Shown: positions 10,437 through 20,153 of the stretch, in pieces
Numbering within the stretch: the stretch's first letter is position 1
Layout of the letters: each line of letters opens with the position of its first letter
From: Balneolaceae bacterium
Lineage (GTDB): Bacteria; Bacteroidota; Rhodothermia; Balneolales; Balneolaceae
Direction of reading: 5' to 3'
Length of the DNA: 64,000 nucleotides
Assembly: GCA_034521495.1 (NCBI GenBank)
Contig: JAXHMK010000021.1
Span: forward strand, 115,455 to 179,454
Notes under the pieces: generated by a model
The model's database searches: none
Told to the model about the DNA's origin: nothing
What the model saw: the letters and a program-made list of their open reading frames with translations, nothing else
Program-made: the position numbers and the translations under genes

Positions 10437-10559
10437 GCATAACAAGGCGTTTCAAGCGGATTTTAACGCAGCGTGATTTGCCACTTAGAAGTTTTTGGTC
10501 GTTATTGCCGTTGTTAAAAACCATCTTGTTAAAACCGCTTAAACGCTGGGTCGTTAGGG
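10437..10559 (+). other. attC-like site 1
   Basis: GCATAAC-aaggcg-TTTcAAGCGG ... CCGCTTAAA-cgctgggtc-GTTAGGG; imperfect palindrome with an extrahelical C. Confidence 0.85.
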
Positions 10560-10581
10560 GTATTAATCACAAATTAATTAT

Positions 10582-12528
10582 ATGCTAAATTTTATATCTA
10601 TCGATCTGGAGAATGAACCAGAAAACTCAAATAACATATCATCAAGTGGAAAATTAGTACTATCGAATGATGTCACTTTTATTGCTGGACCTAATGGTTC
10701 AGGCAAGACTCAAATTTTGTCTTATTTATCCAAAAATTTCTCAAACCTTAACTCTCTCCCAGTCGGCACAAAGTTTAGATTTGATATACAAAGCATAGAC
10801 GACAGTTTTAAAAAATATATTGAGTCTAAAATAGATTACGACAAGGATTATTTTGGTCAAATAACTGAAGGAAGCTTTATAAATGCCAGACTTTCAGAAA
10901 CTAATCAAAACTTAAGATTACCTGACTGGTTTAAAACCAATGAGGGAAAAACAATCAATAGATCCTCGAATGAAAGTGATGAGCTATTTAAGCTTATTGG
11001 AGAAGCTAGAATTAATCATAACACTGGTAAAGTAGTAAGGGTAAATGATGAATTTGAAATACCAGCTACCTACTTTGAGGTTCCTAGCACTAAGTTTTTA
11101 GATGCTAAGCGAATGAGAAATATTTCGATGGATCGCCAATCAAATCCACAAGAGTTTATTCTAAAACAAAACTCTAATAATACTAAACCAGTTGAACTAT
11201 TCTCAATTCTTGAGGCTGATCCAGAATTAGAAGTTGAAATATTAGCTAGGATTGAAGCACTTACTGGAGTTAAAATTCATATTGAAAAAGAAGGGAGACA
11301 ATATAACGTAAAATGTAGTAGAACAGGTAGAGAAGGTAGTTGGAATTATAAATCCGAAGCTGATGGCATTATTAGTTTGTTGGTACTCTTACCATATCTT
11401 TATTCTGAAATCTATGATATAATATTTATTGATGAACCCGAAGCTCATTTATATCCAGGCCTTCAACAAACTCTTCGCACATTAATATACGACGCTTGTG
11501 AAAAGACGGGAAAAAAAGTGGTTTTAGCAACGCACTCTGAAAAAGTAGTTGCTCCTCCAATGACTAATTTTCGTGAATCAGTACACGTTACTATCCCCCA
11601 CCCTAACCATCATGAAGTAATCCAACTTCATAAAGCAATTTCAAACCTTGGTGAGGATTCATCTGAAATACATCAGTGGCTAAGTGAGCAAGCATTTGGG
11701 GATAATCAAGATAGTGTTTTCTCTTCATTGTTTGCATCCGAAACAATTATTGTTGAAGGTCCATTTGATATGATCTTCCTAGATCGTATTGCAAGGTTTG
11801 TTGGCAGAGAATTTAGAGCAGGGTCAGTTGCTTTTTTAGAAGCTGGTGGTGTAGGCGGAGTTCACAGATTGGTAAGGCTGTTAAAGTCAATGGGCAGACT
11901 GACAAAAGTTATAGTTGATTCAGATATAACTGATCAGCCAGGTGTGCTACTAAATATTGCTAAAGAAATGGGGGTTTCTAACAAAATAATTGAAAAAGCT
12001 GTTGATTCAGACTTAAACTTCCAAGAACTACAGAAAAAATGTAGAAAGTTTGACATTCATATTCTCTCGCATCCGGGTATAGAATTTTACTATCATGAAG
12101 AAGACAATGCTGAAAATTTAGAACATCCATCTCAAAAACGGACCTCACTGATAAGAGAGTTGAAATCTTTGGAGGGTCTTGGTTTTGATGAAGTAAGAAA
12201 AAGATATAGTAATCTAATTGATATTATTGAATCAGCTGTCCATCGGATGCCAAATGAATGGTTAGAGGCACATTCAAGAGAAACAAACAAATTGCTTGCC
12301 GAAATATTACATGAGTGGAAGCTTCACGAAAAAGAAAATGGGAAAGACCGAGATGGACTTATAGAAAATCTAGAACCTCAATTACAGCGGTTTGCAGATT
12401 ATGAATTTGATGATGAGGAAAATTTAGTGTTAACACATCGTTTTTTATCAGCAGTAAATATAAAATTGGGTATTAATGATAACCCTGTTGAAACTAATTC
12501 GGAATGGATTGAAAATTTTGAAATATAA
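10582..12528 (+). CDS. OLD-family ATP-dependent nuclease (ABC-type ATPase + TOPRIM), cassette 2
   Basis: Walker A GPNGSGKT, Walker B FIDEPEAHLYP, LATHS, TOPRIM IIVEGPFD and DSD; visibly AT-rich. Confidence 0.8.
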   Translation: MLNFISIDLENEPENSNNISSSGKLVLSNDVTFIAGPNGSGKTQILSYLSKNFSNLNSLPVGTKFRFDIQSIDDSFKKYIESKIDYDKDYFGQITEGSFINARLSETNQNLRLPDWFKTNEGKTINRSSNESDELFKLIGEARINHNTGKVVRVNDEFEIPATYFEVPSTKFLDAKRMRNISMDRQSNPQEFILKQNSNNTKPVELFSILEADPELEVEILARIEALTGVKIHIEKEGRQYNVKCSRTGREGSWNYKSEADGIISLLVLLPYLYSEIYDIIFIDEPEAHLYPGLQQTLRTLIYDACEKTGKKVVLATHSEKVVAPPMTNFRESVHVTIPHPNHHEVIQLHKAISNLGEDSSEIHQWLSEQAFGDNQDSVFSSLFASETIIVEGPFDMIFLDRIARFVGREFRAGSVAFLEAGGVGGVHRLVRLLKSMGRLTKVIVDSDITDQPGVLLNIAKEMGVSNKIIEKAVDSDLNFQELQKKCRKFDIHILSHPGIEFYYHEEDNAENLEHPSQKRTSLIRELKSLEGLGFDEVRKRYSNLIDIIESAVHRMPNEWLEAHSRETNKLLAEILHEWKLHEKENGKDRDGLIENLEPQLQRFADYEFDDEENLVLTHRFLSAVNIKLGINDNPVETNSEWIENFEI

Positions 12529-12559
12529 ATACCCCTAACCTATATATGGCCTCCAATGT

Positions 12560-13060
12560 CAAGTGGCAATAGCATTCCCTGGCAAGAAAAATTTTCCTCA
12601 CCTAACCGCACTCGATAGCCTTTCCGTGGAATTGTACTACAAGCAGTATTCAACGATGGTTTGCAGCATCATGACTGCACCAAACACATATAGAGGCTCG
12701 ACAGCTGGCAGTCAGTATATAAACCGACTGTAACCAACCGGTCCTGCCGGTTGCAAGACGGCCATAGAACATATTGCGTACCCTGATCCCGGATGATCAA
12801 GCGCGGGGCTATGGCATTATCGAATCGCCATTCCAGTTATGGAGCATCTCGGAGCAGGGGCAGTACATGCCGATGGTTTCGGCACACCACATGCCGAGTA
12901 TCGAAAAATCCAGGGGCAGCTACCGCCTCCAATCAAGCGGTGCGAGCTGGGCGTTATGGCCTGGCCAGCCGAGGAATGATCTACAAAATAGTCATAGTGA
13001 ATGGGCTGGACGAAAGGCTCTTACCATAAAGCTTAGTTAGACGTCGGGCTGGCGGTAGCT
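12560..13060 (-). ncRNA. Candidate seek/bridge RNA region of the IS1111-type element
   Basis: Position is as known for IS1111 non-coding regions; contains 7-mers matching the restored target (CCTAACC, TAACCAA, CAAGCGC). Boundaries are not resolved. Confidence 0.45.
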
Positions 13061-13066
13061 CCCCAT

Positions 13067-14136
13067 TTATGTTTTTTGTTTATTCATGATCGAATTTGTC
13101 AGAAATTTGTGCTCATTAAAGGGTTCCCGCCGCTTGAGCATATAATAGACCGCCACTCCCAGGCGCTTGGCAATGATGGTCAAAGCTTTTCCTTTTCCGT
13201 GACGGCTGATCAGGCGGTTATAATATTTTTCAGCCTGGGTATTTCCTCGCAGATATAACAGAGAAGCTTCCGAGAAGGCCCACCGCAGGTGCGCATTGCC
13301 GATGCGGCCGCCAGTGGTCCCGTAATTTTTTCCATTGGAGGATTTCTGCCCTTTCACCAACCGGGCATAGGAGCAAAACTCACCCGGCTGGGAAAACGGC
13401 CAATATCGTGGATCTCGTAGAGCATCGTCAAGGCCAGCACATCCCCGACTCCTCTAATGCTTTTTAGAAGGTACAGGCTTGTAGGATCGTGTCCCTTTGC
13501 CAGAGACAAGATCTGCTTATCCAGTCGTTTGATGATCGGGTCATAATGGTCGATCAGTTCCAAATCGGTTTGAATCATAAGCTGTACAACCGGATCGGGA
13601 AAATGCCCCACGATATCTTTATCCCGGCGATGATGTGGGCGCGAGAGTGTCCCCAACGACGGCAAATTGTACTGGCTCGTTGTATTTTGAATATGCCCCA
13701 ACAGCTCCGCCCGTTTGCGGACAAAATGATTGCGCCGTCGCATCAAATCCCGGGTCGCCCGCATCTGAGGCGGATAGACATAAGCCACCGGAAAGTTCCC
13801 GCCCCGTATCAGCCGGGCGATCTTCAGCGAGTCGATGCGGTCGTTCTTGGTTTTGACTCCGTGAATGGCCTTCATATACAGGGCGTGACCCAGGATAAAG
13901 TCAATGCCCTCTTGCTCACATAGATCTGCAATCCAATACCAACAGAAAATGCACTCAACACCAACGACAAGACCATCCCGAAACTCGGCAACGGCTTCTA
14001 AAAAAGCTTCCGGAGTGCACGGACGGTTCTTGTGATAGACAACGCTGCCTTCGCTGTCCAGGATACAGATGTACATAAACCTTGCGTGTAGGTCAATTCC
14101 GTAGTAATATGAATGGATACCGGTATAAACGTTCAT
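13067..14136 (-). CDS. IS110-family DEDD transposase, frameshifted near 13385
   Basis: GIDLH, GVEC, KNDRIDS catalytic residues. Adding one G restores PSRGEFCSYARLVK, which joins the 13067-13360 ORF (GNAHLRWAF). Confidence 0.9.
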
Positions 14137-19636: not shown

Positions 19637-19650
19637 AGGGAAAAGAAAGA

Positions 19651-19770
19651 AACCTAATCGCATTAACTGGGACGCGGACGTGGCTTCGATTTACAGAGTT
19701 GCTTGTTTTGAATTTTTAGCCGTTAATTAACTCATAATCTCCGCGCCCGTTATGCGCTGAGTCGTTATAT
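19651..19770 (+). other. attC-like site 5 with damaged R'' core
   Basis: ACCTAA-tcg-CATtAAC ... GTTATG-cgctgagtc-GTTATAT; about 4 nt are missing after CCTAA. Confidence 0.7.
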
Positions 19771-19798
19771 TTTTAAACTTTAAATTAAAAATTTCATC

Positions 19799-20014
19799 AT
19801 GTTAGAATTTATAGGTGGTCTTCTCGTAGACCTATGTCTTTTCGGTGGTATTGCCCTATTTGGTATGAGCTTTTTCAAAAAGTTCAAAAAACATCAATTC
19901 AAAATGATTATTTTTAGTATTGTTCTACTTGTACTCTGGATTGTGTTTATAGATATGGCAGCTCTTTCTGAAGCATTTCAGCAAGGCGTTGAAGCAGGTA
20001 GAGGTAATCAATAA
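19799..20014 (+). CDS. Small two-TM hypothetical protein (cassette 6)
   Basis: 71-aa ORF filling the space between attC5 and attC6; two hydrophobic segments. Confidence 0.65.
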   Translation: MLEFIGGLLVDLCLFGGIALFGMSFFKKFKKHQFKMIIFSIVLLVLWIVFIDMAALSEAFQQGVEAGRGNQ

Positions 20015-20018
20015 AACT

Positions 20019-20153
20019 GTTTAAAATATCAAGCGCATTAACTCGGACAGGCCTCGCCATCTCCTTGCCTCGCTTCCACTTATTAGTTAATATTTCGTTT
20101 TAAAACTAATTCGACATTCTGGCGCCTGCCGGTTATGCGCAATGTCGTTATCT
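20019..20153 (+). other. attC-like site 6 (last), R'' lacks AAC
   Basis: Near-identical to the right part of attC2; ends GTTATG-cgcaatgtc-GTTATCT. Confidence 0.75.

Follow-up and report, generated by a model that had tools for sequence, protein, structure and literature searches.

A structural variant of the attC site typical of Balneolaceae integrons

Introduction

What are the six imperfect palindromes that punctuate a chromosomal gene cluster of a Balneolaceae bacterium, and does their unusual spacing call for a recombinase other than an integron integrase? The cluster lies in a stretch of 64,000 nucleotides (64 kb) of contig JAXHMK010000021.1, which we analyzed as a whole and refer to below as the window. 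Six gene groups, all on the + strand, are flanked on the left by a sulfatase gene (7687-9288, +) and on the right by an ABC transporter gene (20268-22064, -), both conserved and converging on the groups, and the open reading frame (ORF) layout together with Pfam matches places one imperfect palindrome 3' of each group, an arrangement characteristic of integron cassette arrays. An initial annotation, made from the letters of the DNA, had described the palindromes as attC-like sites with a non-canonical spacer geometry, pointing to a divergent site class and perhaps a distinct recombinase. Our analysis indicates, with high confidence, that the six repeats are genuine attC sites, the hairpin-forming sites of recombination with which integron gene cassettes end, that they belong to a subfamily characteristic of chromosomal integrons in the halophilic family Balneolaceae (Balneola, Gracilimonas, Rhodohalobacter and Fodinibius), that this subfamily is accompanied by an ordinary integron integrase (IntI), and that the array in the window is a CALIN, i.e., an integrase-less cassette array. 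The sites constitute a new structural variant of attC, typical of one bacterial family. Loci from other genomes and metagenomes are cited below by their L numbers.

Six attC sites in the window

The covariance model R1, built from 27 non-redundant sites of other genomes with the window sequence excluded, finds exactly six matches in the window, all on the + strand, at 53.5-60.9 bits (E 1e-11 to 1e-13), the next-best match scoring 13.2 bits (E 0.59). Together they span 10437-20153, identical to the span of the initial annotation, whose six attC-like sites are thus precisely those recovered by a model trained outside the window. Site S1 (10437-10559; 57.6 bits) is intact: its R'' box GCATAAC (10437-10443) is followed by the loop AAG, the helix GCGTTT/AAACGC, the loop TGGGTC (10547-10552) and the R' box GTTAGGG (10553-10559), and its extrahelical bases are C 10453 and A 10460, which on the bottom strand are G and T. 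Likewise intact is S4 (18428-18516; 60.9 bits, fold z -2.5), with R'' GGTTAAC, loop AAT, helix GTGGCT/AGCCAC and R' GTTAGGC (18510-18516). S3 (17698-17789; 54.5 bits) carries R'' ATATAAC, loop CAT, helix GCAAAT/ATTTGC and R' GTTAACC (17783-17789), with two mismatches in the distal stem. S2 (attC2; R1 match 14233-14361, 53.6 bits) is split by an insertion sequence (IS): the R'' half, CCCTAAC, lies at 12533-12539 and the remainder, at 14240-14361, reads AA-GCGCAT-T-AAC-G-CGG-A-CAGGC ... ATGCGC-AATGTC-GATATGG, with three extrahelical bases. S5 (attC5; 19647-19770, 53.5 bits) retains an R'' remnant, ACCTAAT (19652-19658), R' GTTATAT (19764-19770) and the top-strand extrahelical bases T19664, T19668 and A19672, the model having needed a 2-nt insertion and R-box mispairs to accommodate it. 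S6 (attC6; 20024-20153, 54.9 bits), the last site, ends in R' GTTATCT (20147-20153).

In predicted folds the bottom strands form hairpins whose 3' arm carries single-base bulges: G and T bulges 6 bp apart in S1, S3 and S4, and three bulges 3 bp apart in S2, S5 and S6, the first extrahelical base of these latter being A, not G. Both scanner patterns, the one with two and the one with three extrahelical bases, match at 0-1 mismatch, and such bulges are those of the extrahelical-base rule of attC sites (PMC5027507), by which a first base, usually G, and a final T flank a 6-bp stem, a third base between them being optional. The R'' and R' cores (RYYYAAC and GTTRRRY) are both present in S1, S3 and S4, and across the family AAC and GTT are found in 149-150 of 150 sites; the G after R' AAC, reported for attC sites (PMC2727003), is invariant in family sites. 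Each cassette has a single site at its 3' end, always in the same orientation, and cassette homology breaks within 0-2 nt of the point between the G and TT of R'. The family thereby shares with the classical attC sites of the mobile and Vibrio type (attCaadA7, VCR) the R'' and R' cores, the G after the bottom-strand AAC and the imperfect hairpin; on the R''-L'' arm, either an extrahelical G and T separated by 6 bp or three such bases at 3-bp intervals; and the terminal structure of variable length, the one site per cassette 3' end and, in the majority of its members, the distance on the R'' side described below (a=8).

A lengthened R' arm fixed across Balneolaceae

To describe the geometry we use two distances: a, the bases between R'' AAC and the first extrahelical base; and b, the bases between the point opposite that base and R' GTT. 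With a 3-bp L box, the spacers of the initial annotation equal a-3 and b-3. A free-geometry scanner (a 5-13, b 5-16) requires the bulge pattern between three outer and ten inner pairs and tolerates no more than one mismatch. Many true sites escape it, among them S3 and every site of L056; its counts are therefore samples, those of the covariance models being totals. It returns (a,b) = (9,12) for S1 and S4; S3, missed because of its two distal-stem mismatches, is (9,12) by eye and by model. The claim of a 9-nt L'-to-R' spacer in all six sites stands, in that each of the six strings quoted for it directly precedes R' and b=12 in S1 through S6. The accompanying R''-to-L'' spacer of 6 nt is correct for S1, S3 and S4 but not for attC2, to which it had also been ascribed: restored by removal of the IS to CCCTAAC-AA-GCGCAT-T-AAC.., that site has a=8 and a spacer of 5.

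Beyond the window, a scan of one genome per species with the pattern TCAAGCGGA-N30-60-CCGCTTA-N10-CGTTA returned at least 120 stretches against our own chance estimate of about 8. Among the matches listed nearly all belong to Balneolaceae (Balneola, Gracilimonas, Rhodohalobacter, Fodinibius and many metagenome-assembled genomes, MAGs), with up to seven within 8 kb. R1 matches 84 sites in ten fetched loci and 304 in a hundred others, some 390 in all. Perfect scanner matches of family loci have b=12 in 122 of 125 cases, the a arm giving 5 or 6 nt; further, 112 of the (8-9,12) sites found by the scanner do not match the search pattern and are hence unbiased by it. With b fixed at 12 and R'' not required, AAC stands at a=8 or 9 in 170 of 178 sites (101 and 69, respectively), and 22 loci hold sites of both kinds. 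Thus, the family norm is 5/9; the 6/9 spacing that had been taken as the geometry of the type is its minority form.

The classical values used for comparison were either measured here or taken from papers. The usual attC central spacer is given as about 5-6 unpaired nt per arm (PMC5027507, as usual rather than absolute); class 1 plasmid cassettes (aac(6')-29a, blaVIM-2, arr-3 and aac(6')-Ib) measure (8,8) or (8,9); and in 80 environmental metagenome loci with integrases 52-97% identical to IntI1, scanned with an IntI alignment, perfect matches show a=8 in 34/35, b=8-9 in 28/35 and b=12 in 0/35. All three sources agree with the classical spacers of about 5 and 5-6 nt from which the initial annotation set the window sites apart. 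On inspection some odd b values in the IntI1-like loci proved to be duplicates arising from a second GTT. Genuine values of b=10, 11 and, once, 12 stand beside b=9 sites with matching cores in L143, L146, L162, L166, L193 and L198, and classical integrases therefore meet longer arms now and then. As to whether long spacing is common in other attC sets, on which the claim of a separate class had been made to depend, b=12 is absent from the IntI1-like perfect matches, though a few long R' arms do occur there. The Balneolaceae peculiarity is the fixation of b=12. In sum, relative to classical attC the family has an R' arm of 12 nt instead of 8-9; a proximal helix of 6 bp instead of 3; a=9 in 41% of its members, including all three intact sites of the window; and, often, A instead of G as the first extrahelical base.

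Lineage-restricted subfamilies with shared sequence and fold and a lineage-specific IntI have a precedent in the taxon-specific attC types of Ghaly et al. 2021 (PMC8352920), a paper in which a term search finds no mention of Bacteroidetes-type phyla and which treats the spacers as named parts without lineage differences in length. In the literature that we searched, no paper connects integrons with Balneolaceae.

Balneolaceae-type attC sites also occur on MAG contigs, mostly short, labelled Spirochaetaceae, Paceibacterota, Falkowbacteria, Virgibacillus, Gammaproteobacteria and others (L014, L017, L030, L043, L045, L048, L050, L051, L053, L054, L095, L113 and L118). Mis-binning of these contigs is likely, with horizontal transfer as the alternative.

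Pairing of the extra bases

We tested pairing at the three positions by which the L helix is lengthened in the direction of the R box, using 150 family sites aligned to R1. The outermost extra pair is standard in 138/150 sites, 6 of which show two-sided changes; the second is paired in 149/150, with such changes in 20; and the third in 150/150, with such changes in 30. Slid partner columns of the same sites pair at 31-41%. An alignment fitted to R1 biases these percentages toward the structure, and more weight is for that reason due to the two-sided changes. At the corresponding three positions of 30 classical sites, 47% of cells are paired, close to the 34-42% of slid controls. Judged by this covariation, the three extra bases pair on both arms, with compensatory changes. 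Because they pair, the predicted central loop of the family is 6 nt (R' arm) by 2-3 nt (R'' arm), followed by a 6-bp helix, rather than the classical 6 by 5 followed by 3 bp. The usual spacer of 5-6 unpaired nt per arm is thus not what these sites have: counted by boxes the family spacers are 5-6 and 9 nt, and counted by pairing 2-3 and 6 nt. The larger, asymmetric unpaired spacer proposed in the initial annotation is indeed the more lopsided one; as a loop it is smaller than the classical, the three extra bases being paired.

The partner enzyme

A co-occurring tyrosine recombinase clade, the search for which had been suggested as a check, does exist, and it is IntI: tblastn with IntI1 (a query 100% identical to annotated IntI1) finds full-length homologs of 40-48% identity adjoining such arrays in 11 loci. 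In the loci examined in detail (e.g., L056 and L019), the integrase gene and the cassettes are read in opposite directions, as in classical integrons. Nine Balneolaceae integrases align to IntI1 gap-free over residues 15-330; R146, K171, H277, R280, H303 and Y312 are invariant in them, and the IntI-specific insertion (L212, P213, K219, Y220, P221, W229 and F233) is conserved. Their best solved relative is VchIntIA (2A3V; E 2e-82, 280 bits versus 122 bits for XerA), and dozens of these proteins go by the name 'integron integrase' at NCBI. One position of interest, read from the alignment, is IntI1 P109, which aligns with K in the Balneolaceae clade. By its sequence, then, the partner enzyme is an ordinary integron integrase in a clade of its own. 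Of the idea that the spacing marks a divergent class with a distinct recombinase, what survives is a separate subfamily of sites with its own integrase clade; the enzyme itself is of the ordinary kind.

Against this background, a recombinase other than an integron integrase acting on a different class of site has very little to recommend it. The absence of an integrase from the window (see below) and the non-classical spacing would favor such a scenario; yet 11 loci have the same sites beside bona fide intI genes, in opposite transcription and together with a junction like attI, the remaining attC features are present, and no other recombinase recurs beside the arrays, the XerC/D-like matches in L099 and L070 being isolated. 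We consider it highly improbable.

The window array as a CALIN

Within the 64 kb, tblastn with IntI1 and nine Balneolaceae IntIs finds no integrase, and a search for an intI remnant gave noise only; the association of the sites with an intI gene and an attI site, seen in 11 loci of relatives with this site family, is thus not that of the window. Because no IntI is present in the window, the array has no integrase of its own, which makes it a CALIN. That class is defined by two or more attC sites without an integron integrase close by; here we count six sites and no IntI-like sequence in 64 kb. The array shares with the CALINs of Cury et al. 2016 (PMC4889954) its six attC sites, the lack of a nearby intI, an IS beside or inside the array and degraded sites; it differs from them in that it seems to keep an attI-like left end and in that it occupies a hypervariable spot whose relatives are without attC. 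It is best read as a partly decayed CALIN, the array itself being ordinary.

Six cassettes, all on the + strand, make up the array. Cassette A (9891-10429) encodes a Phd/YefM antitoxin (9891-10166; PF02604) and a YoeB/ParE-like toxin (10163-10429; PF06769). Cassette B (10582-12528) encodes an ATPase of the OLD family that bears a TOPRIM domain (AAA_21, AAA_15 and OLD-like_TOPRIM in Pfam) and matches Old, GajA and AriA of PADLOC at 1e-15 to 1e-16; it is a single gene with no partner gene, and we call these matches to defence proteins weak. Cassette C (14631-17661) carries four genes, identified by Pfam: a thioredoxin-like protein (14631-14873), an ArsP-type permease (14874-15863), a flavin monooxygenase-like protein (15877-16926) and an ECF sigma factor (17062-17661). 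It may be an organoarsenical or redox stress module and, at 3.3 kb (14367-17697), is unusually large for a cassette. Cassette D (17865-18433) holds a DUF433 gene (17865-18089) and a DUF5615 (PIN-like) gene (18086-18433), by Pfam a toxin-antitoxin-like pair; cassette E (18557-19636) a beta-lactamase-fold serine hydrolase (PF00144); and cassette F (19799-20014), in the ORF list, a 71-aa predicted membrane protein with a weak DUF4293 match.

Several of these cassettes have homologs in other arrays. The stretch 14367-17697 is 99.2% identical to positions 517-3849 of L063, from a Gracilimonas MAG (Salar de Ascotan soil), where the four-gene cassette stands between a different upstream attC and a different downstream cassette, the homology running from 1-2 bases after the R' G into attC S3. 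Cassette A has an 81% identical homolog in L096, bounded by family attC sites; cassette D has an 83% identical, family attC-bounded homolog in L095, in which the same IS splits the equivalent of S4 at the same point. Two runs from one salt-pan sample (X1 and X2) contain 73-81% of the sampled words of the array, and each run has a contig in which 9835 is fused to 17783, the G that opens the S3 R' box. This joint suggests a co-existing form without cassettes A-C, in which cassette D directly follows the left end. Homologs and joint together are suggestive of cassette movement at the predicted recombination points. Joints with one short side that fall within a single attC hairpin, of which there were many, are probably artefacts that inverted repeats cause in the assembly graph, and we disregarded them.

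The left end itself (9790-9842, +) reads ...GCTTAATTATAT immediately followed by GTAATGC, with the crossover G at 9836, and resembles the attI crossover of nine Balneolaceae integrons (..ATATTAATAT followed by GTTATGC, and similar). In L096 the toxin-antitoxin cassette starts likewise, with the break between G and TTATGC, at the same distance from a TTGACA promoter box. A left end at the GTTATGC of 9707-9713 was dropped in favor of 9836, which the homologous cassette of L096 and the metagenome joint both fit. We tentatively regard 9790-9842 as attI-like on this suggestive resemblance, with no integrase gene adjoining it.

Protein clusters place the window in Balneolaceae, near Rhodohalobacter. 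Three relatives (L206-L208) share the flanking genes at about 81% nucleotide identity and, in the interval corresponding to 9288-20267, carry BON-domain, NACHT-like ATPase or TetR/ABC-transporter genes. As these genes are unrelated and come without attC, the position is a hypervariable spot and the array is specific to this genome. Complete chromosomes of Balneolaceae MAGs contain several dispersed arrays, with intI in only some of the stretches fetched.

An IS1111-like element and the decay of sites

The element that splits S2 is a 1700-nt IS1111-like insertion sequence on the - strand (12540-14239; IS110/IS1111 type by PF01548 and PF02371) with a DEDD transposase, its ends being placed at these coordinates because seven independent insertions share the junction. 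Subterminal inverted repeats lie at 12546-12554 and 14221-14229; the transposase frame is split (14136-13354 and 13360-13067); and downstream of it lie about 520 nt of non-coding DNA, where a guide (seek/bridge) RNA would be encoded. The window copy also has a 32-nt tandem duplication at 14148-14211. Contigs of the salt-pan metagenome have an extra C after 13382, near the frame break, and lack the duplication. The word depth of the IS in that metagenome is 28-37 versus 11 for the neighboring cassette, and the IS is therefore multicopy.

In the seven independent insertions in other genomes the IS lies between R'' ..TAAC and AAGCG, in one orientation. The junctions read R'' ..TAAC then (C/A)TATATATGGCCTCC and, on the other side, ...GGAGGCCATGAAYAATATC then AAG.. 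of the attC. A copy 79% identical is found in Rhodohalobacter sulfatireducens (L021), and further copy ends in L036, L095, L121, L042, L026 and L067 have the same junctions as L021, the left ones in L021, L036, L095 and L121 all following R'' ..TAAC. The IS1111-attC group (e.g., ISKpn4 and ISPst6), whose features are defined in PMC11187229, has a DEDD transposase, subterminal repeats, a long non-coding tail and insertion at a fixed point and in a fixed orientation at one attC end, and all of these are found here; the window IS is thus a Balneolaceae counterpart of that group. It differs in host lineage and target (..TAAC^AAG of the Balneolaceae attC) and, as placed, in having 6 and 10 bases outside the inverted repeats versus 7 (or 6) and 3 in PMC11187229.

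Three sites of the window have defects that the initial annotation does not mention. Besides being split, attC2 has R' GATATGG, without the conserved GTT. The R'' of attC5 has lost 2 nt, reading CCTAA^TCGCAT versus the family CCTAAC AATCGCAT; its relatives read GCCTAAC-AA-TCGCAT-T-AAC.. (e.g., L014), with the deletion exactly at the IS target point. In attC6 the R'' is absent and AATATC (20025-20030), the last 6 nt of the IS, stands in its place; for the rest the site matches the right part of attC2 at 92-97% identity. In L063 the array begins with a site that similarly has TATATC (about 415-420) where R'' is expected. Both hexamers look like footprints left by lost IS copies. For IS1111-attC elements, footprints of this kind have been described at the ends of Pseudomonas arrays. 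We had also considered AATATC in S2 and S6 as a mutated R'', with ATC in place of AAC, that pairs with the GATAT of the S2 R' box, and rejected this since independent IS copies show it to be the IS terminus. With attC2, attC5 and attC6 damaged, three of the six sites look competent.

A further irregularity concerns three cassette 5' junctions at which the first T of R' GTT is replaced: GAT (window 14355-14361), GGT and GCT, the other two being at L063 about 503-509 and L095 about 2625-2631, with downstream homology starting at the next base. Two of the three precede the same four-gene cassette; such triplets are otherwise rare (1/178).

Competing explanations and a possible mechanism

If the sites work as those of every integron, the bottom strand of attC would fold, an integron integrase would bind the R and L boxes and read the extrahelical bases, and it would cut in the AAC of R'. 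In the Balneolaceae family the distance on the R'' arm would be kept at 8 or 9, with the R' arm 3 nt longer, at 12, and the helix 6 bp instead of 3. If the window array, an attI-like end plus six cassettes, is acted on at all, the IntI would have to come from another part of the genome.

Certain observations weigh against this picture. Only three of the six window sites look competent, and recombination itself was not observed. For the metagenome joint each run offers a single contig, one side of which measures just 28 nt, and the two runs share a sample. Local alignment between the nine attI regions and the region upstream of the array does no better than shuffled controls. The three close relatives are without attC sites at this chromosomal position. 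Finally, what we term classical is a comparison set of class 1 cassettes and IntI1-like environmental integrons only.

Granting that the sites are attC, it must be asked why their geometry is so constant. One credible answer, which we hold to be a minority possibility of some weight, is a founder effect, by which the geometry would be a neutral mark inherited from one ancestral attC, with no function beyond keeping the hairpin. Homogeneous attC sites are known in large chromosomal integrons (PMC4889954), and the family does share sequence (..TAAC-AA(G)-GCGTTT-C-AAGCGG.. and ..CCGCTT-AAACGC-YGGGTC-GTTA). Nevertheless, b=12 is kept exactly in every one of the subfamilies, whose helices differ greatly (GCAAAT, GTGGCT, GCGCAT and GGGCTT) and whose extrahelical bases number two or three; such exactness across differing subfamilies argues for a constraint on length rather than mere common descent.

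A second answer, possible but rather doubtful, is co-adaptation: the 12-nt R' arm and 6-bp helix would be required by the Balneolaceae IntI and poorly used by enzymes of the IntI1 type, making the two an orthogonal system. This would account for the near-fixation of b=12 over hundreds of sites and many genera, and for the compensatory changes that keep the three extra pairs, which imply selection on structure; moreover, the position at which the clade has K is that of IntI1 P109, of which the P109L mutant tolerates altered central-spacer geometry (PMC2727003). Against it, the central spacer is reportedly not contacted by the integrase (PMC5027507); IntI1-like arrays hold b=10-12 sites beside b=9 sites; the 22 loci that mix a=8 and a=9 imply that the enzymes tolerate changes of length; and the Balneolaceae integrase has neither insertions nor deletions relative to IntI1.

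A more specific proposal, to which we assign a somewhat lower likelihood still, is that Balneolaceae IntI and attC together represent a naturally occurring variant of the integron synapse in which the R' arm needs a 4-nt surplus (a 2 x 6 loop beside a 6-bp helix). Were this so, the geometry would be poor for IntI1 and VchIntIA and classical sites poor for the Balneolaceae enzyme, an orthogonal integrase/site pair, and it would offer a direct handle on the part of the central spacer in bending and strand choice. That part has been studied by inverting or pairing the spacer in a few model sites; a whole family with a different fixed layout is a natural comparison for establishing which distances the integrase really measures.

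Finally, that the six repeats are unrelated palindromes resembling attC, such as REPs, MITEs or terminators, is a notion that a true MITE-like repeat elsewhere in the window (9316-9480) might encourage but that is next to untenable given one site after each gene group and always in the same orientation, the R'' and R' cores and extrahelical bases, the break of cassette homology at R' and the use of these sites by an attC-targeting IS family.

Detection by classical models

The departure from classical geometry raises the question of how such arrays fare in routine searches, which the initial annotation thought might miss them. As a stand-in for a classical model we used 30 environmental sites having a=8 and b=8-9 to build a covariance model, R2. 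Class 1 cassette sites independent of it score 31.6-56.9 bits. In the window, once the filters are switched off, S1 scores 22.0, S4 20.1 and S3 15.5 bits and the others below 7; under default filters R2 reports only S3, at E 0.34. In the ten Balneolaceae loci R2 recovers 61 sites at E <= 1 (14-27.5 bits) and R1 84; R1 in turn scores classical sites at 15-36 bits. Each model thus recognizes the sites of the other, at lower scores than its own, which speaks for the family being attC. Part of the R2 deficit may come from base composition, the training set being GC-rich, and the published attC model treats the spacer more loosely (PMC4889954); for these reasons under-detection is plausible rather than shown, R2 being a stand-in and not the model of IntegronFinder. 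In practical terms, attC models built from clinical and proteobacterial sites may under-detect this family, which the stand-in scores 10-35 bits below class 1 cassettes, so that counts of integron content may be too low for halophilic lineages related to Bacteroidota. With a lineage-specific model the Balneolaceae sites are recovered cleanly.

Other features of the window

The MITE-like repeat mentioned above is about 150 nt long and present in three copies, about 84% identical (9316-9480, 288-423 and 57953-58090), with 16-nt terminal inverted repeats at 9326-9341 and 9455-9470; its word depth in the salt-pan metagenome is about 1700 versus 11-20 for neighboring DNA. On the - strand at 28191-28243 there is a match to the Rfam Whalefall-1 RNA, at 38.8 bits (gathering threshold 37).

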